The position numbers and the translations under genes were made by a program. The notes beneath the pieces were generated by a model. The model did not search any database. It had not been told where the DNA came from and was given only the letters and a program-made list of their open reading frames with translations. From IMG/VR virus record IMGVR_UViG_2563366942_000019: 18,919 bases of DNA. The stretch is one strand, 5' to 3'. Origin of the DNA: a virus (lineage: Duplodnaviria > Heunggongvirae > Uroviricota > Caudoviricetes). Positions 1,286-18,919 of this stretch are shown one piece after another. The stretch's first letter is position 1, and each line of letters opens with the position of its first letter.

Positions 1286-1737
1286 TGCTGGTATTGCCAA
1301 CTGCTGACTAAAGCGTACAAGTGATTTGGAGAATAGCGCCAGCTTTCCTTCAGTTGCAGAAATTCAGCACAAAATTCACTGCAAAACAGGCGATCGCGCT
1401 GTTCTTTATTACCGATAATAATTCCTAATGCTCCGCGCCAGTCATATTTTTTGCCATCATGTTTACGGAAAAAAGTTTCCACATCCTGAAGGCTGGCCTG
1501 GAGCGGCAGCATATCCCACTTATCCGCTGGCAATGGCATTATTTTTCCGCGTACACCGCGATCGCGCAGTGATGCGGAGTAACAAAGGTAACTCTTTTCA
1601 CCATGCTTAATGGCTAATTCACAGTGGGAATAATGACCACGTGTGATTTTACGGGTAAGCCAGTCAGCCAGTCGGGCAATACCACGGTGCTCTGTTCGGC
1701 CCTTATAACAAGCGAGCCAGACAGTGGTTTTACTCAT
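1282..1737 (-). CDS. Hypothetical protein, last gene of the tail operon; weak resemblance to permuted papain-like (YaeF/YiiX, NlpC/P60-superfamily) hydrolases
   Basis: 151 aa ORF whose ATG overlaps the stop of the fibre chaperone gene (ATGA at 1734-1737). Contains His-containing motif GHYSHCELAIKHG and, C-terminal to it, CSEFCAEF, reminiscent of the His-then-Cys order and CSE motif of permuted NlpC/P60 enzymes. Assignment is from memory of motifs only. Confidence 0.45.
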   Translation of the reverse strand: MSKTTVWLACYKGRTEHRGIARLADWLTRKITRGHYSHCELAIKHGEKSYLCYSASLRDRGVRGKIMPLPADKWDMLPLQASLQDVETFFRKHDGKKYDWRGALGIIIGNKEQRDRLFCSEFCAEFLQLKESWRYSPNHLYALVSSWQYQQ

Positions 1738-2441
1738 GGTTGCCAGCCTGTTGAATAATCGTAGTCGAGCACCGCCTGAATATCGTCCAGTGCTTCCACC
1801 GCCGCGATATGGTGCTGGGCGTTTGCGAACAAGCGCATATCGTGATCCATGGTGACCGATTCAAACTGGGCAGCGATTTCGTTGGTTAACTCAATCAGAC
1901 CATTATTTTTAGTTTTCCACATTAACCCTGGCGGAATTTTTTTCTCCGCTCCCATTTTTGTGAGTGAAAGCTGTTGGATACGGCTATTTGTATCACTGTG
2001 GAAGTGATGGTTGTTGATGATGATGTAATCGGTTGTGATGGCATCGCGTTGATTTTTGATTGCAGAGTATTTCGCCTCTTTAGCATCGGTTATAGATGGT
2101 TGCCATTTTTCACCATCCCAACGTTCAAAAGAACCTGTCGGGGAAATGACTGTTACATTTTCAGGTAATTGGCCCAATTCTTGAATAATAAGCTGGCTAC
2201 CATCAACTTTGTTATAAACAGTTTGGCCTCGATGATCTTCAATAAGTCTCCATGTTTCATTCTCCCACACTGGAGTAAAACCAGGAACCTTTTCGGGAGG
2301 TGAAATTAATGTGCAATAATTTGGCAAGCCTGTATTAGGTGCAATGTATGCATCAGACTCACCGATATATTCTTGGGAGTCTTGTGAAAAATTATATACA
2401 GTTAGTATTTGAGCTTCATCGGAAAAGGTAAAAGTATTCAT
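1734..2441 (-). CDS. Tail fibre assembly chaperone (Tfa-like)
   Basis: 235 aa ORF immediately downstream of the tail fibre gene and coupled to it by an ATGA overlap (2438-2441). N-terminal region has Tfa-like features (aromatic then Gly/Pro-rich, ...[11 protein letters not shown]...). Position matches Mu U / P2 G. Confidence 0.6.
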
Positions 2442-4078
2442 GCTAGCCTCACAATATAGTTGAATGCGATATTTTTGACGGTGTTTTCGGTGTTGCCGGT
2501 ATTATTAATGGTTAGGGAGTGATTATGGGAACCAAGGGCAATTGAATGCGAATGGGTGCCAATTGAAAGTTCATGTGTATGGCTACCCAATGCGATAGTA
2601 TGTGCATGGGTACCAATGGCTGTAGTATGAGAGTGATCACCTACAGTATCGGTATTAACGTAGTCATAACGAGAGTCACCTATAGAATCAGCGGTTAGTG
2701 CATTGCCACCGTAATCAGCATCACCTTTACATGTTATTTGATGTGAATGGCCCCCTGTGCTGGTCGACGATTTACTTCCGTGATTGAACGACGATGTTGT
2801 CTTAGAACCAAGATCAGAGGCAGATGTCGTTTTGTGTCCAAAATCAAAAGATGATGTTGCCTTTGTCCCTAAATCAGTACTCGAAATACTGCCCGTATGG
2901 TTATGTGATTTAATTCCATCCAGTTCAGTAGATAATATAGCTCGCCCACTGGATGGTTTTCCTTTAATTATCCATCCGCGCATGTCAGGAATAACACCAG
3001 ATGGATATGCAATTCCCAGTTTGGGATAGGAGGCTTTATTAAATGTCTGACCTGTCATCAGAGCGTAGCCTGAAGGTATAGAATCAGATGGCCAAGGAAT
3101 AGGCATCCCTACAGGACAGCTTTCCGCAGCAATAGCCTTATCCATCGCTGCCTTAACAGCGTTCGGCGTTGCAGCTTCCGTCGTACTGGTGCTGTTGGTC
3201 GCATTATTAAGTTTCACGACCCCTTTTTGCGTCAGCGTACCGTCGGGGATACCTGTTATTTGCCCCCAGGCATGGGTATGGCTGGACGGTGCCGCAGCAA
3301 TAGCCTTATCCATCGCTGCCTTAACCGCACTTGGTGTTGCAGCTTCCGTCGTACTGGTGCTATTTGTTGTATTGTTAAGCTTAACGACTCCTTTCTGCGT
3401 CAGTGTACCATCAGGGATACCAGTAATCTGATTCCAGGCATGATTATGACTGGTGGCAGCTTTGCTATTTGCCAGGTCATATGCCGTTTTTACCGCTTTT
3501 GGCGTGGCCGCTTTGGTTTCATCATCGCTATTAGTCGCATTACTCAGCTGCGTAAAACCTTTTTGTGTCAGCGTCGCATCAGGATGATTTCGTGATTGCT
3601 GATGTGTTTTCAACGCGTCATCGACATATTCCCTGGTTGCCACAACGACTGAAGGGTCGATCAAAAGCGTCACCGCATCTGCATTGGTGACTTCCATGAC
3701 CGCGCGTATAACGATTTGCTTACTGGCCCCCGCAGGTAATCGTGGCTTATAGGTTTCCGGGAATTTACCAATAGCGACCAGCGTGCCGTCGGTATCCAGT
3801 AACCCAACTTCGCGTACATACCAGCCTCCGACTTGTTCGGGAATAATCGCTTCTGCGATAACCCAGGCCGGATTATCTGGCGCAATTTTTAATGTATTGA
3901 GCTGACCACGCCAGACCTCATGGACTACTTTGGTCTGACTTTCTGTCGGTTCGATATATTTACCATTACCGTCGCCAACTACCATAGTTTGCAGACGGAT
4001 CTGTTTTTGCTCGGCCAGTGCTGAGGCAATTTTGGCTTTGCCTGCAGCAGTTAATATTGTAAAAAATTCACTTGCCAT
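2438..4078 (-). CDS. Tail fibre protein (Mu S / P2 H-like) with internal 56-aa repeats and His-x-His C-terminal tip
   Basis: Start chosen at the internal ATG (4078-4076) giving [39 protein letters not shown], the conserved N-terminus of Mu/P2-type fibres. The track ORF extends to 4201 but would overlap the upstream gene by about 120 nt. Contains tandem fibre-repeat units ([32 protein letters not shown]) and a C-terminal HxH repeat array. Confidence 0.85.
2500..2650. repeat. Short-period coding repeat encoding five His-x-His units at the fibre C-terminus
   Basis: Translation [44 protein letters not shown], with matching nucleotide periodicity around 2520-2640. Confidence 0.6.
3128..3600. repeat. 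About 2.5 tandem copies of a 168-nt unit inside the tail fibre gene
   Basis: aatagccttatccatcgctgccttaac... recurs at 3131 and 3299 (period 168 nt = 56 codons), with a third degenerate partial copy near 3464-3600. The copies encode the repeated fibre motif. Confidence 0.7.
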
Positions 4079-4812: not shown

Positions 4813-5905
4813 TCGTGACGTCTATTGCGGTGCATTCCGCCCACTCATGCGCCTGCAAAATACGTTTTGTAGGCATATTCAGCGCAACGTCATAGACGCC
4901 ATCGACCTGTAACACTTTGATTATCTGGTTTGGTACAATGTCCTGCCCCAGATGTTTCTGCCGCTGTTGCGTCCAGAGGCTAATCGCTTTACGCGCCGCA
5001 GCCAGCGTTGTCTCCTGATCGGCGGTGGTAAACAGCGTTAGCTGCGCACGGATCTCATACGGCACTCGAAGAGCGCATTTCGCACTCACTTTGTCGGTCA
5101 GCGGTCGTTTTTTCTCCTTGCTGACTTCTTGTTCAATCTGCGCCAGCAACTCCGTGCCGGGTAGACCATTCAGGGTTAGCGGGTAGATCTCCACGCAGCC
5201 TTCTGGCAATCCCTCGTCCGGCCCCAGTACTGCAACGTCAATAATCGACTGGCTAACAGAAAGCGTATGAAAGCGGTATGCGCCATAGCTGCCCGCATTA
5301 CTAAAGCTTTCTGGTGCCAGTTGGATACGCTGGCGCAATGCGTCATCGCTCTCTTCACCGCAGCCGCCCGTTGACGCAGTCAGGTTGGTTACGTTGATGT
5401 CATAATGACCAATCCTGTCGACCAGTGCGCTAATTTGTGCAGGCTGCCAGCCGTTGCCCTGTTCACCTGCTGCGAGGCTGGTGGCAGGAACGGCGATATG
5501 CAAACTCCTGGCCGGAAGCAGAACATCTTCATCGGTGGCGAACATCACGCTATCAGAGGCACTGGCCCGCGTCCCCTGGGGAATCAGGATATTGCTGGTA
5601 TACGCACTGACGACCGAAAACTGCAACGTCGTTTTTGCCGGTTGTGCAGGCAAACGGTGAACGCCCACCAGCTCCCCTAAATAATCCAGCATTGGCGCGC
5701 GGGAATACGCGACCAGGTTCTGTTTCGCCGCTTCCTGAATGGCGATGCGTACAAGGTTTTCACGATAGGCAAACAGGTCGATGAGCAACCGCTCAGCCTG
5801 TGCCGGATAGAGTTTTTTACCGCTGGCATCTTCATATTGCGCAATCATCTCACTGGTAATTTGCGCAGGATCGCGGTCAATAAAATTGGGTTCGGCTATC
5901 GCCAT
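4790..5905 (-). CDS. Baseplate wedge protein, P2 gpJ / Mu gp47 / T4 gp6-like
   Basis: 371 aa; size, position downstream of the gpW-like gene and overlap with neighbours are typical of baseplate J proteins. Confidence 0.75.
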   Translation of the reverse strand: MAIAEPNFIDRDPAQITSEMIAQYEDASGKKLYPAQAERLLIDLFAYRENLVRIAIQEAAKQNLVAYSRAPMLDYLGELVGVHRLPAQPAKTTLQFSVVSAYTSNILIPQGTRASASDSVMFATDEDVLLPARSLHIAVPATSLAAGEQGNGWQPAQISALVDRIGHYDINVTNLTASTGGCGEESDDALRQRIQLAPESFSNAGSYGAYRFHTLSVSQSIIDVAVLGPDEGLPEGCVEIYPLTLNGLPGTELLAQIEQEVSKEKKRPLTDKVSAKCALRVPYEIRAQLTLFTTADQETTLAAARKAISLWTQQRQKHLGQDIVPNQIIKVLQVDGVYDVALNMPTKRILQAHEWAECTAIDVTIAGVSDG

Positions 5906-6255
5906 AACACCTCCGTTGAGTTGATAACGCCGTCAGCGGCGCGCCATTGCACACGTAACGTCAGATGTTCACCGTCGATTACTGGTGTCACCTTCAGCAA
6001 CCGACAGCGCGGTTCCCACTGGCGGATGGCTTCCACCGACTCCCGTACCACATGCGGGATTGCCCGCTCGATGGGGTAATCGATGTAGTGCCACAAGTTG
6101 CTGCCAAACAGCGGTCTGTGAGGATCACTGCCGCGCGGTGTGCGCAGAATGATGTGTATCGCCTGGTGAATATCATCCAGCCCGCAGACGTATTCTTCAG
6201 GCCGCTGCAAGGCCGGTTGCCAGTGCAGCGTTGAGGGGCGTGTTTTTGTTTTCAT
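5896..6255 (-). CDS. Baseplate protein, P2 gpW / Mu gp46 / T4 gp25-like
   Basis: 119 aa; small gp25/gpW-sized protein immediately upstream of the gpJ-like gene with a 10-nt overlap. Confidence 0.7.
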   Translation of the reverse strand: MKTKTRPSTLHWQPALQRPEEYVCGLDDIHQAIHIILRTPRGSDPHRPLFGSNLWHYIDYPIERAIPHVVRESVEAIRQWEPRCRLLKVTPVIDGEHLTLRVQWRAADGVINSTEVLWR

Positions 6256-14142: not shown

Positions 14143-14323
14143 TTTCCTCTCCGTTATTTTGTTCTTCCTGAGTGATGACAGGAGTCAGATGATTGCGGGC
14201 AATCATGGTCATGACCCACTCGTTGTCTTCTGGCAGATCAATTTCACTGTTCGGCCACAATAAGATTTCTTGTCCGTCGGCAAGGGTGACGCCGCTTGCC
14301 GGGCCGTTGTAGATGTATTTCAT
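14126..14323 (-). CDS. Small tail-associated protein (Mu gp37-like)
   Basis: 65 aa ORF overlapping the sheath start by 17 nt and the upstream gene by 4 nt, in the position of Mu gp37 just upstream of the sheath gene. Confidence 0.45.
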   Translation of the reverse strand: MKYIYNGPASGVTLADGQEILLWPNSEIDLPEDNEWVMTMIARNHLTPVITQEEQNNGEEIVHGS

Positions 14324-14775
14324 TCAGTTTCCTCGTAATTAACTTCAGTAAGCAGGGTAAGGTCCGTGCTTTCCCGTTTCGCGATAAACAGCGAGCTGGT
14401 CGCCATTTCCAGGATGTAGCGGCAGAAACCGCCGCTCTCACCTGTATTAATTTCTTTTTCAAGCCAAAGCAGACGATCGCAATCAGGAAGCTGAAGGCCA
14501 CCCAATGCGCTGCGTATGTGATCAAGTGCGTTTAACGCGTCACAATTTTTGCCAACAATAACGGTGGCGGTTAAGCGAAGTATTTGCTGTTGCACGATGG
14601 CATCACTGCTTTCGGGCGTGGTAAAGACAGAACCGCTATAATTAACAATCACCGCAACTTGTTGTGTCTGTGGAATATATTTCTGGGCATCCGTAGATGA
14701 AATAAATACGTCCATTTCGGGGTTGTGCTCACGTAATCTTGTCACGACACAATTCATTACAGATAAAATTTCCAT
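14320..14775 (-). CDS. Tail completion/terminator-type protein (Mu gp36-like)
   Basis: 151 aa, first gene after the intergenic region and terminator, in the position of Mu gp36 upstream of gp37 and the sheath gene. Confidence 0.45.
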   Translation of the reverse strand: MEILSVMNCVVTRLREHNPEMDVFISSTDAQKYIPQTQQVAVIVNYSGSVFTTPESSDAIVQQQILRLTATVIVGKNCDALNALDHIRSALGGLQLPDCDRLLWLEKEINTGESGGFCRYILEMATSSLFIAKRESTDLTLLTEVNYEETE

Positions 14776-14882
14776 ATAGGCTGTACCTTAATTACCGCTC
14801 ACTTCGTTATCGTTGAGATATATTCTGAAGCAGTGAAGGTGAAGAATCTTTTAATGTGATTTAGAGAAAAAATTGAATGGTT
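14776..14882 (-). promoter_or_regulatory. Putative promoter region for the tail operon (possibly activator-dependent)
   Basis: 107-nt AT-rich gap between the terminator and the first tail gene. No convincing sigma70 -35/-10 pair was found by eye, as would be expected for a Mor/C-dependent late promoter. Confidence 0.3.
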
Positions 14883-14920
14883 AAAAAAATCCCCACCCTT
14901 ACATAAGGGTGGGGATTTTT
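14883..14920 (-). terminator. Rho-independent (bidirectional) terminator after the lysis cassette
   Basis: ccccaccct-tacata-agggtgggg 9-bp stem flanked by aaaaaaa (14883-14889) and attttt (14915-14920). On the minus strand the stem is followed by a U7 tract. Abuts the stop of the 14920-15234 gene. Confidence 0.7.
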
Positions 14921-15234
14921 CAATAACTGCCACGTTGTAACAGCTCGATTTTGCTATATAAGGCATCCAGCTTCGCTTCTAATACTGCTTGCCCACGAAG
15001 ATAATCTTCTCTGCGGACATAATGCAGCGGAAGCTCGGCACGAAATTCGAGAAATTCTCTTTCCAGTTTCGACCAACTTGTTTCTGATTCCCTGCGGGCA
15101 TTTTCCAGAGACTCAAAACGCTCATTAAGTCGTTTTTCAATTTGTGCTAACAGCAGTTTTCCGGCAGCAAACATTAATCCAACGAAGGAAAGCATAAGGG
15201 AGATCACTTCCCAAAAATCGATACTGAGTTTCAT
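14920..15234 (-). CDS. Lysis-cassette membrane protein: N-terminal transmembrane helix plus coiled-coil (i-spanin-like, or Mu gp25 releasin-like)
   Basis: 104 aa; hydrophobic segment WEVISLMLSFVGLMFAAGKLLLA followed by a charged heptad region (EKRLNERFESLENARRESETSWSKLEREFLEFRAEL). Good RBS (agagggg) upstream; lies 12 nt after the transglycosylase stop. Confidence 0.45.
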   Translation of the reverse strand: MKLSIDFWEVISLMLSFVGLMFAAGKLLLAQIEKRLNERFESLENARRESETSWSKLEREFLEFRAELPLHYVRREDYLRGQAVLEAKLDALYSKIELLQRGSY

Positions 15235-15246
15235 CGGCCCCTCTGA

Positions 15247-15852
15247 TTAATGAAGACAGCTTGCCTGTCCCCAGAGTAAATAGCGGGCGGCATGTTGATA
15301 GAGGATCATCTTTGGATAGCGACGATTTTCTCGCCAGTTCGTGGCGCTGCGCCCGGCGTTGACTTGCTCAACATGACCAAACCAGCTAGTGGCATCTAAC
15401 CCTTTGGATGCAGCCAGTTTTTTATCCCGGTTAACCCACCCCTGACCGCCGTTATAGGCGCTTAGGGTAAACGCCATACGCTGACAATCATTTTTCGCAG
15501 AGATGTTTTTCCACAAATGCTGGTCATATTGCACCAGCGCGCGAATCGCCCAGGTTGGGTTATACGGTTTGTTTTCACGCAATTGTGGATACAACTGGCT
15601 TATCCATGTCGCTGTAGCAGGCATAAATTGCGCCATACCTTGTGCGCCAACGGGGGAACGTACCATTGGCTGCCAGGCGGACTCCTGGTGTAATTGCCCG
15701 GCAAAGTCGGCCACTGGAGCATTCAGCCCCCAGACTTCTCGAGCTGTACGAATTAGTTCGTTTCGCCATGCCAGAGAGGCTCGCGGCGGTTCAGAGGCGT
15801 TAAGCGGGAAAAGAACGAAAATAATCATAGACGCGATATATTTCAGCCACAT
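15247..15852 (-). CDS. Lytic transglycosylase (SLT domain) with N-terminal signal/SAR-like sequence; putative endolysin
   Basis: Start chosen at the internal ATG (15852-15850) giving MWLKYIASMIIFVLFPLNA. SLT family-1 motifs are present: HQESAW, GAQGMAQFMP, AYNGGQGW. The track ORF starting at 15930 would overlap the upstream gene by 76 nt. Confidence 0.75.
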   Translation of the reverse strand: MWLKYIASMIIFVLFPLNASEPPRASLAWRNELIRTAREVWGLNAPVADFAGQLHQESAWQPMVRSPVGAQGMAQFMPATATWISQLYPQLRENKPYNPTWAIRALVQYDQHLWKNISAKNDCQRMAFTLSAYNGGQGWVNRDKKLAASKGLDATSWFGHVEQVNAGRSATNWRENRRYPKMILYQHAARYLLWGQASCLH

Positions 15853-15854
15853 CA

Positions 15855-16142
15855 CTATAGCCCTAAGGCGACGGAAAGACAGACGGCGGCAACGATGATG
15901 GCGCGGCGAATCATTGCCGCCGCGCAGCAACGAGGTTCCTTCCAGGGGCTAAAAGAGTCAGGCCGTGCCCAGGGGAACAAACTGCGATCGAGCCAGTATC
16001 CCAGCACCGCGGAAAGCGAAACCAGGCTTAGTTTATAAATGACGACCGGGATCTGTGCTGAAGAGGTCCAGCCGATCACGACAAACAGCGCGACGGAAGC
16101 GACCAGCCAACCGGAAAGCCGGGGAAGAGTGACTTTTTTCAT
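15855..16142 (-). CDS. Small membrane protein with 2-3 hydrophobic segments (putative holin or pinholin)
   Basis: 95 aa; hydrophobic stretches LSGWLVASVALFVVIGW, LSLVSLSAVLGYWL and AIIVAAVCLSVALGL. Strong RBS (caggagataccgtATG). Directly precedes the transglycosylase gene. Confidence 0.45.
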   Translation of the reverse strand: MKKVTLPRLSGWLVASVALFVVIGWTSSAQIPVVIYKLSLVSLSAVLGYWLDRSLFPWARPDSFSPWKEPRCCAAAMIRRAIIVAAVCLSVALGL

Positions 16143-16437
16143 ACGGTATCTCCTGATAAGTGAGCGTTTAGTGTCGCCAGAACCCGCCAGTGAAGAATGA
16201 AAAAAGCTTTAATAAATAAGTTTAAAAAATAGATTCTCTATAAATGAACATGCCCGCTAATAAATCCACTCAGCAATTAAAGAGCAAAAGGTGACCTCGC
16301 GAATAAGCGCGTCATTATGCAGGGAAAAGATGATGGTGAATCGTAGGAATAGTCAGTAGTTATTTGATTTTTAAAGTTTGTTTAAGAAAGTCAGCGACTG
16401 TGAGGGAAACGATCTTTTTACACTACAGGTAAAAATA
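16143..16437 (-). promoter_or_regulatory. AT-rich region upstream of the lysis cassette, interrupted at its distal end by the IS
   Basis: 295-nt AT-rich non-coding stretch between the IS left end and the first lysis gene; presumed lysis/late promoter region. Confidence 0.3.
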
Positions 16438-16480
16438 ATACTGTATGTGCATGGGTCTTCCCCGATCATGGTGGGAAGAC

Positions 16481-17701
16481 TCAGTACGCCATATTCAGTT
16501 TCCCATAGTGGAACATAACTCCCAGTTTAAAGCGTTCCCGGTTTCGGTATCCCCTGGCCTTTATCCTCAGCAGTCTGATCTTGCTGTTCAGCGCCTCCGC
16601 ATTTCCATTCGAGACGCGATGACGCATTGCATTCAGTATTCCGTATAACCGTTTTTTAATGGTTTTCGCTGCGTTTTTCATCATCGGCACATCACATTCA
16701 GACGCCAGCGATATCCACTGCAACCAGTCATTCCTGCGTTCTGTGCTCCAGGGGCGATCCCAGATATTTTTTGCCAGCTCTTTCAGTGTCCAGCACTGGC
16801 TTGTCTGTTGCATCTGTTCCCGCAACCACATCAGCTTTTCCTGCCGGGACTCAGTCATCCATTTGTCGCTGTACTGCCACAGGAAGCGGGTACCTTTGGC
16901 CTGACGACGACTTTCAACAGGGAGGTGCGGATGTTCATTCTGGCGGGTTTTATCAACCACTTCGCCCAGTTGCTTCGCCACATGGAAGCGATCGAAGGCG
17001 ATTTTCTCGACCGCATTGGGTAAATGGATACGCGCTGCTCTTATATAGCCCGCATTCATGTCCATCGACAGTGTTTTGATGGCCAACAACTGACTGTCAG
17101 TAAGCGAACGGAGATAGCTGGCAAGACTCTCTGTGCCACGATCATCGGTTAATGCCAGTGCCCGCCCGTCGCGATCAGATACCACGGTTATATACCTATG
17201 CCCTTTTTTAAAGGCGACTTCGTCTACATTCATATGACGCACTGATAAAGGCTTTTTAATCCGCGACAGGCCTCGCTTAACCGCGCGGGTCATGATGCCG
17301 TCAACGGCATTCCAGCTAAGTTTAAGTTGTTTTCTGACCGCATCAACGGTGCTGATTTTAAGCCATGAGAGCACGAACGATTCGAACAGCAGAGTGTACC
17401 GACTGCCGGAACCTGCCCACGGTACAGGCAGAGTCTGGCAGCCATGCTCCGGGCACATAACGCGGGGAACATCGGCTTCTACTAATGTCATGAACTGGCA
17501 GGTATCAAGGTGGCGCCATTTACGATGTCGGTGATCGTGAACAGAACAGGATTTCCTGCAGGTCGGACAGGTTAACTGAGTATTTTCAGCAATTCCGACT
17601 GTAACAGTAACGGAACCTGCATTTTCATCGAGGGTAAGGGATTTAACCTGCCATGGTGCAGTCAGGTTAAGGATATGGGCATAGAGGGATTTTTCGTCCA
17701 T
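16481..17701 (-). CDS. ISL3-family transposase
   Basis: 406 aa; N-terminal zinc-finger-like CPTCRKSC...CPEHGC, then the DDE region with the ISL3-type motif NVDEVAFKKGHRYITVVSD. Confidence 0.85.
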   Translation of the reverse strand: MDEKSLYAHILNLTAPWQVKSLTLDENAGSVTVTVGIAENTQLTCPTCRKSCSVHDHRHRKWRHLDTCQFMTLVEADVPRVMCPEHGCQTLPVPWAGSGSRYTLLFESFVLSWLKISTVDAVRKQLKLSWNAVDGIMTRAVKRGLSRIKKPLSVRHMNVDEVAFKKGHRYITVVSDRDGRALALTDDRGTESLASYLRSLTDSQLLAIKTLSMDMNAGYIRAARIHLPNAVEKIAFDRFHVAKQLGEVVDKTRQNEHPHLPVESRRQAKGTRFLWQYSDKWMTESRQEKLMWLREQMQQTSQCWTLKELAKNIWDRPWSTERRNDWLQWISLASECDVPMMKNAAKTIKKRLYGILNAMRHRVSNGNAEALNSKIRLLRIKARGYRNRERFKLGVMFHYGKLNMAY

Positions 17702-17719
17702 ATAATTTCATTCTGAAGC

Positions 17720-18238
17720 TTACTTTAAACTGATATTATTATTTTTTGCCCACTTTCTTAATCTTCCATTAGCGTTGGCGTAAGGCGAAGATGTGTTAAA
17801 TGAGATCATTCTCCCCATCGTCCATTTTGTGTACCATGGTCTTCCATACAAAATATCATCGGTACGATCATTAATAAGGTTCACAATCTCATTTTTTACA
17901 GTATGAAGTTCAGCTACTAACAACTCATAACTTAACTCACTGTAATCTGAGTAAAATTTTTGAGCAAGAAGGCCAAGCTGATTCCATTTATAGCCAGTTT
18001 CCGGAAAATCGACAGGCAGACCTTTAGCATCAGAAGCGATCCACTTTACAACAAGAGCATTCCATCCAAGCAGATACGAAACGAGATCACGAACACTCAT
18101 CTCCGTTCCTTTGGCGTGTCCGTCCATTGATTTATCTGAAGTAATTTCTGGTGGGATTGTGTTGAGGTAACTAATTAATTTACTAAAATTTTTATCAATA
18201 GCTAAAAGCAGTTCAGCTTTTGTTTGCGGCACACTCAT
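17720..18238 (-). CDS. ClbS/DfsB-family (DUF1706) four-helix-bundle protein; passenger gene within the IS
   Basis: 172 aa; motifs DGHAKGTEMSVRDLVSYLLGW, FPETGYKWNQLG and RPWYTKWTMGRMISFNTSSPY recalled as characteristic of the ClbS/DfsB family. Good RBS (gaggga). Located inside the IS inverted repeats, upstream of and co-oriented with the transposase. Confidence 0.6.
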   Translation of the reverse strand: MSVPQTKAELLLAIDKNFSKLISYLNTIPPEITSDKSMDGHAKGTEMSVRDLVSYLLGWNALVVKWIASDAKGLPVDFPETGYKWNQLGLLAQKFYSDYSELSYELLVAELHTVKNEIVNLINDRTDDILYGRPWYTKWTMGRMISFNTSSPYANANGRLRKWAKNNNISLK

Positions 18239-18352
18239 AAGAATTCCCTCTCATGTAAAAAGAGACACCATAAAGGTACTGTGTGGTGTTTGAAAATCAC
18301 TCAATTATGTACCACCCACCACAACAGGGGAAGACCCATGTGCATACAGTAT

Positions 18353-18571
18353 CGTGTAAAATGATACTCCTGTTGATAAGAAACATAACGCAAACAATAT
18401 ATTTATTTAGTGAATTTATGCGTTCATTAATATTAATAATTTATATTTTTGTTAATTGTTTATTTGTTTGTTGAATGTATTGAGTAGCAGTAATGACAAC
18501 TGCTTAGCGTATATCCGTGGTTTTACACGCATCGGGTCTTATTCAGGATGCAAGATATATGGAGATGAAAA
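18353..18571 (+). promoter_or_regulatory. AT-rich upstream region of the Mor-family gene
   Basis: About 220 nt, strongly AT-rich with repeated ttaat/tttat tracts (cattaatattaataatttatatttttgttaattgtttatttg); GGAG RBS 7 nt before the ATG at 18572. Confidence 0.3.
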
Positions 18572-18919
18572 ATGATACGAAAATCAAAAGAGATGGCCCG
18601 GACACCGGAGATCATTAACGACCTGGCTTTTCATGCATCGCAAGTTCTGATTGAAAGCATCAATCTCGACAGTTCATCGGCAGAAAATGTGGGCTTTGCC
18701 ATTGCCGACCGAATGATGCGTAACTGGGGCGGACAAAGCATTTATTTCCCTAAGGGGATCTCCGGACGAGCATCGGAGCGTGACTACCAAATCTATAGCG
18801 AGTGCGATGGGCGCAACTACGCCGAATTAGCGAAGAAATATAATCTGACGCTGCAATGGATTTATAAGATTGTGAAACGCGTACATGCGGAAAAGCAACA
18901 GCGCCGCAGTAATTCGTAA
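18572..18919 (+). CDS. Mor/C-family transcriptional activator (Mu middle/late operon regulator-like)
   Basis: 115 aa complete ORF (stop at 18917-18919). C-terminal ...ERDYQIYSECDGRNYAELAKKYNLTLQWIYKIVKR is the helix-turn-helix region characteristic of the Mor/C activator family. Confidence 0.75.
   Translation: MIRKSKEMARTPEIINDLAFHASQVLIESINLDSSSAENVGFAIADRMMRNWGGQSIYFPKGISGRASERDYQIYSECDGRNYAELAKKYNLTLQWIYKIVKRVHAEKQQRRSNS

Follow-up and report, generated by a model that had tools for sequence, protein, structure and literature searches.

The clusters that encode the R-type pyocins of Pseudomonas aeruginosa carry their own holin and muralytic enzyme and release their particles by lysis. Those pyocins are of P2-type tail origin, employ a cytoplasmic lytic enzyme and have kept Rz/Rz1-like genes. 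Among tailocins of Mu type, carotovoricin of Pectobacterium is encoded together with a holin and a lytic transglycosylase (PMC13195805, PMC13566846), and phage Mu itself works without a holin (Chamblee et al., 2022, PMC9239132). The subject of the present analysis is a stretch of 18,919 nt (IMG/VR record IMGVR_UViG_2563366942_000019; the whole of it is called the window below), in which three genes on the minus strand, at 14920-16142, encode a holin, an SLT-family lytic transglycosylase and a 104-residue membrane protein related to gp25 of phage BcepMu (gp25-like protein, or gp25L). We read this cassette, with a probability of about 0.7, as the lysis operon of a domesticated headless contractile-tail cluster of Mu/BcepMu type, that is, of a carotovoricin-like R-type tailocin; with the R-type pyocins it would have in common a tailocin cluster that carries its own holin and muralytic enzyme for lysis of the producer cell.

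The cassette of BcepMu and of its relatives B3, KS10, phiE255 and PhiKM contains a homologous holin (61% identity over the matched segment), SLT protein and gp25 (46%) in the same order. The BcepMu SLT endolysin is 51% identical to that of the window over the full length and 55% over the matched segment, its N-terminus is signal-like, and the Mor/Mu-like background is shared as well. The complete order in BcepMu is holin gp21, SLT protein gp22, Rz gp23 with the embedded Rz1 gp24, gp25, gp26 and the small terminase subunit; B3 is alike, and PhiKM shows the same order as far as its partial record runs, which ends within the gp26-like region. In contrast to BcepMu, the window is without Rz/Rz1, gp26, terminase and head genes, and its gp25L gene is followed by a terminator and then by the Gp37 and sheath genes. 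Carotovoricin, the layout of which is found also in Samsonia and Lonsdalea, shares this headless arrangement of holin, SLT protein, gp25-like gene, Gp37, a 65-residue protein and sheath but, unlike the window, its loci keep gp26 and an Rz gene with an embedded proline-rich Rz1 lipoprotein.

Two further systems are close in one respect each. With Mu, the window has in common an exported endolysin and a protein of about 100 residues, with its N-terminus outside and its C-terminus inside (N-out/C-in), encoded downstream of the lysis genes and, in the wider lineage, upstream of gp26 and terminase (PMC9239132). The Mu enzyme, by contrast, is a muramidase with a Gly/Ala-rich signal-anchor-release (SAR) domain, and Mu has no holin yet has spanins, the reverse of what is found here. 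Lys44 of the Oenococcus phage fOg44 shares the cleavable-looking endolysin signal, in a system where the holin serves timing or activation and not transport; it differs in its Gram-positive host and catalytic fold, and cleavage of the window SLT protein is a prediction. A SignalP signal peptide in the homologous lysin of the BcepMu-type phage KS10, together with the analogy to fOg44, has already been published (PMC2628397).

A headless tail cluster fixed beside lysC

The window is 100% identical to the chromosome of Escherichia coli MS 21-1. In the RefSeq annotation of 42 kb around it, the gene order is lysC, a Mor-family activator, the insertion sequence (IS) ISEc53 with a ClbS/DfsB gene, a putative holin, lytic transglycosylase, membrane protein, Gp37, a 65-residue protein, tail sheath, tube, assembly protein, tape measure, baseplate genes, fibre and fibre-assembly protein and, after two unrelated genes, yjbD and rluF. 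No gene for capsid, portal, terminase, transposase or integrase figures in that annotation of the full element, and tblastn with the small and large terminase subunits (TerS, TerL) and gp26 gave no match at the window's locus. What is annotated is thus a set of contractile-tail genes with a lysis cassette and a regulator, without genes for head, replication or integration. On its gene content the window is no phage genome but a headless cluster of contractile-tail genes that carries a regulator and lysis genes of its own; that the cassette belongs to an element of tailocin type had been missed by the initial annotation, a reading of the letters of the window made before the present work.

The cluster lies on the chromosome between lysC and yjbD. 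Of 5426 complete E. coli genomes, 197 (3.6%) have it, on the chromosome and essentially as a single copy. The same cluster is present in Salmonella, where the deposited record cross-references its genes to the LT2 tags STM4212-4219. The order pgi-lysC-Mor-holin is common to five of the six other loci that share the spanin-less layout (see below), which argues for descent from one ancient insertion; judged from these gene orders, the cluster is fixed beside lysC in E. coli, Salmonella and three other genera. By its genes it is also homologous to carotovoricin, the Mu-type tailocin of Pectobacterium: the sheath proteins are 72-76% identical, and a sequence box upstream of Gp37 is held in common. 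In the window the Gp37 gene directly follows the lysis operon, at a place where intact relatives carry gp26, terminase and head genes. The chromosomal site of carotovoricin is a different one (ybiB, beside the fibre locus; PMC13195805), and lysC, pgi and Mor had no match in the carotovoricin-type loci.

A pattern scan of one genome per species yielded 80 loci encoding a gp25-like protein, and these together with phage loci, 86 in all, were mapped with reference proteins by tblastn. Prophages account for 61 loci, with lysis genes (holin plus SLT protein in 48 of the 61), a gap of about 0.5-1.1 kb that contains an Rz match in 38, then gp25L, gp26 and TerS. The carotovoricin type, with holin, SLT protein, Rz, gp25L, gp26, Gp37, the 65-residue protein and sheath, is represented by 14 loci from Pectobacterium, Samsonia and Lonsdalea. 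Seven loci (the window, Salmonella, two Superficieibacter, Phytobacter, Dryocola and Lelliottia) read simply holin, SLT protein, gp25L, Gp37 and sheath, with only 10-24 nt from the SLT stop to the gp25L start, and the remaining four loci are truncated. The embedded proline-rich Rz1 lipoprotein was readily found in the prophage and carotovoricin-type groups and was absent from the seven-locus group, the window included.

Within this group the three lysis proteins are well conserved, the window and Salmonella being 86% (holin), 77% (SLT protein) and 90% (gp25L) identical, and the reading frames are as long in Salmonella as in the window and at most one residue longer or shorter in the other five loci. 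Against Salmonella, dN/dS is 0.079 for the holin, 0.085 for the SLT protein and 0.051 for gp25L, compared with 0.077 for the sheath, although these ratios are approximate as dS is saturated (1.0-1.9). The comparison points clearly to strong purifying selection on all three genes. This bears on the view that the cassette is a decaying prophage remnant without present function, the missing spanins and the IS being signs of erosion. The head, terminase, gp26 and spanin genes are indeed gone, the ISEc53 of this strain is 288 bp upstream of the holin, the element is found in only 3.6% of the complete E. coli genomes, and RefSeq flags the fibre gene as a pseudogene. Erosion, however, would hardly leave the three frames intact and at a conserved length across six genera, with the chromosomal site shared by five of the six other species and dN/dS values (0.04-0.14) as low as in the sheath; the deletions are clean, the ribosome-binding sites, terminator and promoter-like boxes are preserved, the IS occurs in just 8 of the 197 genomes with the element, and carotovoricin, the cluster of which is homologous, works as a tailocin (PMC13195805, PMC11974492). 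A remnant of this kind is therefore quite improbable.

Several observations do count against a functional tailocin with this cassette as its lysis operon. Lysis and particle production at the locus are predictions from its genes, and the literature on the locus (LT2 tags STM4196-4219) and on such tailocins gave incidental mentions only of the E. coli/Salmonella cluster. In MS 21-1, ISEc53 sits between Mor and the promoter region of the holin. The fibre gene is flagged by RefSeq as two pseudogene fragments, yet its frame is open over 546 residues and the fibre is probably a mosaic rather than broken. Finally, carotovoricin is reported to be SOS-regulated (PMC13566846), and no LexA box (CTGT-N8-ACAG, with one mismatch allowed) was found near Mor or the holin, at 18360-18571 and 16143-16429.

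The lysis operon, the holin and the export signal of the transglycosylase

From the open reading frames (ORFs) of the window, the initial annotation had described a lysis cassette built around an exported SLT transglycosylase instead of a cytoplasmic lysozyme, flanked upstream by a small multi-pass membrane protein and downstream by a protein with a transmembrane domain (TMD) and a coiled coil, without an obvious outer-membrane lipoprotein spanin among ORFs of 60 residues or more. All of this holds: the three open reading frames lie on the minus strand at exactly the limits it gave, and each component is borne out by the results below. The holin stop codon is 2 nt before the SLT start, the SLT stop is 12 nt before the gp25L start, and an intrinsic terminator closes the operon (Table 1). 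The hairpin has a dG of -26.9 kcal/mol (z=-5.6), a stability attained by none of 200 shuffled sequences; a hairpin with a T-run follows the orthologous gene in Salmonella and in one of the two Superficieibacter species, and in the other there is a hairpin without a clear T-run. Tight spacing and terminator together indicate that the three genes form a compact operon.

Two AT-rich boxes may be the promoters of this operon and of the tail operon that follows. The box upstream of the holin has the consensus TTTTTTAAAsTTATTTATTAAAG across genera and is near-identical in E. coli, Salmonella, the two Superficieibacter species, Phytobacter and Dryocola, although the flanking intergenic DNA has diverged. 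The related box upstream of Gp37 (TTTTTCTCTAAAnnnnATTAAAAG) is retained in E. coli, Salmonella, Phytobacter and Dryocola as well as in the carotovoricin-type loci of Pectobacterium and Samsonia, here too amid diverged intergenic DNA. A scan of 14600-16600 for sigma-70-like promoters found none, which fits activator-dependent promoters, and the two boxes are accordingly put forward as candidate late promoters of Mor/C type, presumably served by the Mor-family protein.

The 95-residue product of the first gene is a predicted holin, with family matches far beyond chance: it matches Pfam PF13272 (Holin_2-3; E=4e-27, 94.9 bits against a cut-off of 27) and phrog_1528 "holin" (E=7e-35), has three hydrophobic segments at about residues 9-28, 31-50 and 72-95, and is 61% identical to the BcepMu holin gp21 over the matched segment. 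The second product matches Pfam SLT (PF01464; E=1e-14, 54.3 bits against a cut-off of 21.3) and phrog_669 "endolysin" (E=2e-61). Its E57, in the motif HQES, aligns with the catalytic E478 of E. coli Slt70 (E57-S58 with E478-S479), and the downstream motifs GxxQ and AYNxG are in place as GAQGMAQ and SAYNGG. By alignment it is 51-58% identical to the endolysins of PhiKM, BcepMu (gp22), B3 and Fc22, for which the endolysin role is an annotation, and tblastn gives 55-57% over the matched segment to the endolysins of B3/Fc22 type and of phiE255. Neither the element nor the 20 kb on either side of it has a further gene annotated as muralytic. A longer form of 227 residues, from an upstream TTG inside the holin gene in the list of ORFs, was rejected for the ATG at 15852, because RefSeq uses that codon, because it follows closely on the stop of the holin gene and because the residues dropped lie upstream of the signal sequence.

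The N-terminus of the SLT protein is made up of the segments MWLK, YIASMIIFVLF and PLNA, with S next. Its core is a run of 12 uncharged residues with a G/A/S/T fraction of 0.17 and a mean Kyte-Doolittle hydropathy of 2.26, compared with 17 residues, 0.59 and 1.19 for the SAR domain of Mu gp22 by the same measures. In 66 aligned SLT homologues the hydrophobic stretch ends at a fixed column 35 residues before HQES, and at this column the residue at -1 is Ala in 52 of the 66, that at -3 is small or aliphatic in 53, and the next residue is Ala or Asp in 60. The counterpart sites are L-N-A followed by SEPP in the window, LPADA followed by AEPP in Salmonella and APVAA followed by QVP in BcepMu gp22. 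The n-h-c layout with small or neutral residues at -3 and -1, as in a Sec type I signal, is therefore conserved across the 66 homologues, whereas the weak hydrophobicity, membrane-spanning length and lack of a peptidase site that would characterize a SAR domain are not what is seen. Since a conserved signal-peptidase motif would be pointless in an uncleaved anchor, a cleavable Sec signal peptide is favoured over a SAR domain, roughly two to one. Of the two terms used in the initial annotation, export or SAR-like sequence, the second is thus the less well supported.

This preference has its own counterweights, in that the measures used for the call are rule-based only and that Chamblee et al. 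class homologous SLT endolysins of Pseudomonas as SAR-type and pair them with DUF2730 proteins of type II (PMC9239132). They are also the starting point for a reading in which the Mu strategy would apply in full: the SLT N-terminus would be an uncleaved SAR anchor that tethers the enzyme, the 104-residue protein a functional releasin, and the holin a matter of timing only. The short and strongly hydrophobic core, when set against the 17-residue domain of Mu, and the AxA-type cleavage motif at its fixed column speak against this for the SLT protein; the case of the 104-residue protein is taken up in the next section. On either reading, cleaved signal or anchor, the sequence features support well that the SLT protein would be exported without need for holin holes.

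Those Pseudomonas N-termini (MKRLLTLGLLGLLSAC...) also contain a lipobox-like LLSAC. A lipobox-like N-terminus replaces the AxA site in the Pseudomonas phages Fc22 and Ps60 (LLSAC/LLTAC) and in Lelliottia (LVSC), at L007 2426-3055, L008 2426-3055 and L013 about 5320-5976 in our numbering of loci; the family thus seems to use export signals of type I in some of its members and lipoprotein-like ones in others.

The gp25-like protein and the absence of spanins

The third product has a single TMD at residues 10-28 followed by two helices, which an AlphaFold2 model places at residues 7-67 and 75-101 (mean pLDDT, the model's per-residue confidence, 75.6); a Foldseek search of BFVD and a profile search of PDB returned generic coiled coils only. 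It is 46% identical to BcepMu gp25 (E=2e-35) and matches phrog_462 (E=6e-34), and by these similarities it is the orthologue of BcepMu gp25. The family counts 1003 cluster representatives at E up to 1e-3, has the invariant motif LPxxYVRREDYxRGQxxxEAKLDA and has no Pfam model. In 129 of 130 family members Lys and Arg are more numerous after the TMD than before it, and the short N-terminal tail is acidic; by the positive-inside rule this asymmetry places the coiled coil in the cytoplasm, with N-out/C-in topology. The predicted topology equals that of the Mu releasin gp25 and is the reverse of that of an inner-membrane spanin (i-spanin).

The orientation bears directly on whether the protein could be a short Rz-like i-spanin, acting alone or with an unrecognised partner. 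Like Rz, it combines an N-terminal TMD with coiled-coil helices and is encoded just after the endolysin, and the RefSeq row for its tblastn match mentions "Rz-like spanin", because that match abuts BcepMu gp23. Its orthologues, however, coexist with a separate Rz/Rz1 pair in BcepMu, B3, PhiKM and 52 other loci, the coiled coil is predicted to be cytoplasmic in 129 of 130 members and not periplasmic as in an N-in/C-out i-spanin, the protein has no Cys, and no outer-membrane spanin (o-spanin) is present. The identification was rejected on orthology, which is to gp25 and not to the Rz protein gp23, and on topology, and it is highly improbable.

The search for spanins elsewhere was negative as well. 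No lipoprotein was found in a lipobox scan of all ORFs of at least 20 residues, with any start codon and on both strands, at 14700-16400, and tblastn with three Rz queries found nothing in the window. A hidden o-spanin or single-protein u-spanin was rejected after strict and permissive scans for a lipobox, in the cassette and over the full window, had given only chance matches inside or antisense to other genes. As positive controls, the scans recovered the embedded Rz1 in B3, Ps60, PhiKM and the Pectobacterium, Serratia and Lonsdalea relatives, although both missed the annotated Rz1 of BcepMu and sensitivity is therefore incomplete. The 12 nt between the SLT and gp25L genes leave no room for a spanin. 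Rz lies between the SLT and gp25-like genes in BcepMu, B3, PhiKM, the prophage loci with an Rz match and the 14 carotovoricin-type loci, with Rz1 embedded wherever checked; since these genes are present in the relatives and gone from the window's group, the absence of spanins is real and is a secondary loss in the tail-only lineage. In this comparison Rz/Rz1 is cleanly missing here, and gp26 was lost too. A census lists 91 phages without an identifiable spanin (PMC6139136), so that a spanin-free cassette is unusual, yet not unprecedented.

What the gp25-like protein does must be judged against the releasins of the DUF2730 family, of which Mu gp25 is one. No similarity in sequence was found: the DUF2730 profile PF10805 did not match the window protein at E up to 10 or any of 130 diverse gp25-like members at E up to 0.01, although it does match Mu gp25 and Fc22 gp26, and BLASTP found no similarity between the 104-residue protein and either of these two. 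Profile comparison by hhalign gave probabilities of 0.6%, 4% and 30% with growing alignments and 0.1% against Fc22 gp26 alone, and its alignments span 16-24 columns, the best one covering 19, with the conserved motifs unpaired; no reliable profile similarity to DUF2730 emerges. Membership of DUF2730 by sequence was therefore rejected, and only slot and architecture are held in common. The architecture is that of the DUF2730 type, with about 100 residues, a predicted N-out/C-in TMD, predicted cytoplasmic helices, a position a few genes downstream of the endolysin and a background of transposable phages. The slot is the same for gp25-like and DUF2730 proteins: it lies between the lysis genes and the gp26 and terminase genes, and a DksA-like gene sometimes stands ahead of it. 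The holin, SLT and Rz genes are common to the Pseudomonas phages Fc22 and Ps60, and the slot after Rz is taken by a DUF2730 protein in Fc22 (PF10805, E=5e-9) and by a gp25-like protein in Ps60.

For the reading in which the Mu strategy applies in full, these data cut both ways. The 104-residue protein agrees with Mu gp25 in slot, size and topology (PMC9239132), Pseudomonas phages that are otherwise near-identical have one or the other kind of protein at the slot, several phages have a DksA-like gene ahead of the slot whichever kind it contains, and gp25L was retained with holin and SLT protein where spanins, gp26 and heads were lost. On the other hand no relation in sequence to DUF2730 was found (0 of 130 PF10805 matches), and the gp25-like family also occurs beside endolysins without any signal. 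A tethered enzyme freed by a true releasin is possible for this cassette, though doubtful. The proposal of the initial annotation that the strategy resembles that of Mu, and not a lambda-type set, survives as regards lineage (Mor, Gp37 and tail genes of BcepMu type), slot and topology; it does not as regards the holin, which is present, the partner, which is not of DUF2730, and the absence of spanins, which is secondary. From slot and predicted architecture, the gp25-like protein may work at the place of the releasin, possibly with a similar action, while standing outside the releasin family.

The partners of the family are varied. The exported SLT protein is the commonest, and others are a Phage_lysozyme with a SAR-like N-terminus, a signal-less Amidase_2 and a weak GH19-like match (22.7 bits, below the Pfam cut-off of 25.5). 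The signal-less enzymes imply that the role of the gp25-like protein need not concern exported enzymes, a point that tells against a releasin-like part in this lysis operon. The variety of endolysin types would also suit a membrane-anchored regulator or assembly factor, for instance in tail assembly or the timing of export, that merely rides on the lysis transcript; in phages the gene stands at the boundary of lysis and packaging, beside the DNA-binding gp26, and its survival in tail-only elements makes a tail-related role possible. A strong terminator, however, parts the gene from the tail operon and groups it with holin and SLT protein, it was kept when gp26 and all head genes were lost, and Mu has a protein of proven lysis function in this slot (PMC9239132). 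Such a regulator or assembly factor is unlikely. Because gp25L was kept under selection on the lysis transcript after heads, gp26 and spanins had gone, a role in packaging is excluded and a role in lysis is favoured.

A "lipoprotein" label is attached to PHROG 462 and to the RefSeq records of BcepMu gp25 and B3 ORF28 (L002 2501-2839; L006 2501-2890). It looks like a propagated pattern-match error, and the present analysis corrects it for a protein that is Cys-less in the window, together with the label "Rz-like", given by proximity. In several Mu-like phages a zinc-finger gene of DksA/TraR type lies directly upstream of the gp25 slot, whether this is filled by a DUF2730 or a gp25-like protein (L077 5729-6004; L027 5774-6004; L090 1278-1499; L092 1268-1483).

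A model of particle release and the neighbouring genes

Taken as the lysis operon of a tailocin, the cassette would work as follows. A Mor-family activator would switch on the lysis operon and the tail operon, each from an activator-dependent promoter of its own. The predicted products of the lysis operon are the three-TMD holin, the SLT lytic transglycosylase and the gp25-like membrane protein. The SLT protein, with its short and strongly hydrophobic Sec signal, is probably cut by signal peptidase I after L-N-A, and it would reach the periplasm without holin holes. By analogy with other systems with an exported endolysin, the holin would time lysis by collapsing the membrane potential and so unleash the pre-exported enzyme. 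The 104-residue protein, in the genomic slot of the Mu releasin gp25, would act as an accessory lysis factor. Rz/Rz1 and gp26, the loss of which is seen in the comparison of loci, would have gone after the heads, and, with the wall degraded, turgor, shear or host factors would rupture the outer membrane and free the tail particles. A further step is tentative and, in our estimate, rather doubtful: that the gp25-like family would be a second, sequence-unrelated class of releasin type, and that holin, exported SLT protein and gp25L would be a self-sufficient spanin-free system, kept for tens of millions of years in Enterobacteriaceae to release a tailocin.

The cassette is of a known kind with a modestly new layout, and current views of phage lysis are not overturned by it. 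The headless elements amount to a natural deletion series, according to which the protein at the gp25 slot would be no head or packaging factor and would be selected together with holin and endolysin; this bears on the question, raised by the work on the Mu releasin, of what non-Mu proteins do at the gp25 position. The three genes also offer a compact system for the study of spanin-free Gram-negative lysis, and the locus appears to be a conserved, apparently unstudied Mu-type tailocin locus of Salmonella and of E. coli phylogroups such as that of IAI39/CE10. The features of the cassette and its surroundings are listed in Table 1.

Table 1. Positions in the window of the lysis operon, its signals and neighbouring features.
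Feature	Position	Strand	Details
Mor-family transcription activator	18572..18919	+	Pfam Mor PF08765 E=7e-38; divergent from the lysis operon; presumed regulator
ISEc53 (ISL3-family)	16430-18359		Passenger ClbS/DfsB-family gene 17720-18238; 288 bp upstream of the holin start
Conserved box ATTTTTTAAACTTATTTATTAAAGC	16206..16230	-	About 65 nt upstream of the holin start; candidate activator-dependent late promoter
Holin, 95 aa (predicted)	15855..16142	-	Pfam PF13272 Holin_2-3; phrog_1528
SLT-family lytic transglycosylase, 201 aa	15247..15852	-	Endolysin of the cassette; Pfam SLT; phrog_669
N-terminal export signal, SLT residues 1-19 (predicted)	15796..15852	-	MWLKYIASMIIFVLFPLNA, then SEPP; n-h-c layout
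BcepMu gp25-like membrane protein (gp25L), 104 aa	14920..15234	-	phrog_462 family; N-out TMD and 76-aa cytoplasmic coiled coil (predicted)
Intrinsic terminator closing the operon	14883..14921	-	17-bp stem, 4-nt loop, U7 tail; stem starts inside the gp25L stop codon
Related conserved box TTTTTTCTCTAAATCACATTAAAAGA	14847..14872	-	Upstream of Gp37; candidate tail-operon late promoter
Gp37-family protein	14320..14775	-	First tail-operon gene; Pfam PF09646 E=7e-34
Tail-fibre gene	2438-4078	-	Phage_tail_fib N-terminus, fibre repeats, Collar domain
Fibre-assembly gene	1734-2441		DUF4376/Caudo_TAP; next after the fibre gene

For the Gp37 protein (151 residues) the best PHROG is phrog_209 "portal protein", a label that is implausible in a headless cluster. 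Beyond the fibre end, the plus strand of the window at 1-1268 holds an SPFH/slipin pseudogene, with an internal stop in this strain, and a gene for a nucleotidyltransferase of the RlaP family (PF10127, E=3e-96); a PADLOC scan of the flanking genes, these two included, gave no matches. ISEc53 occupies its site in the window in 8 of the 197 E. coli genomes that have the tail cluster, and matches to the ISEc53 query, mostly to the unit of transposase plus ClbS, occur in 1843 of the 5426 genomes, 717 of the places being on plasmids.

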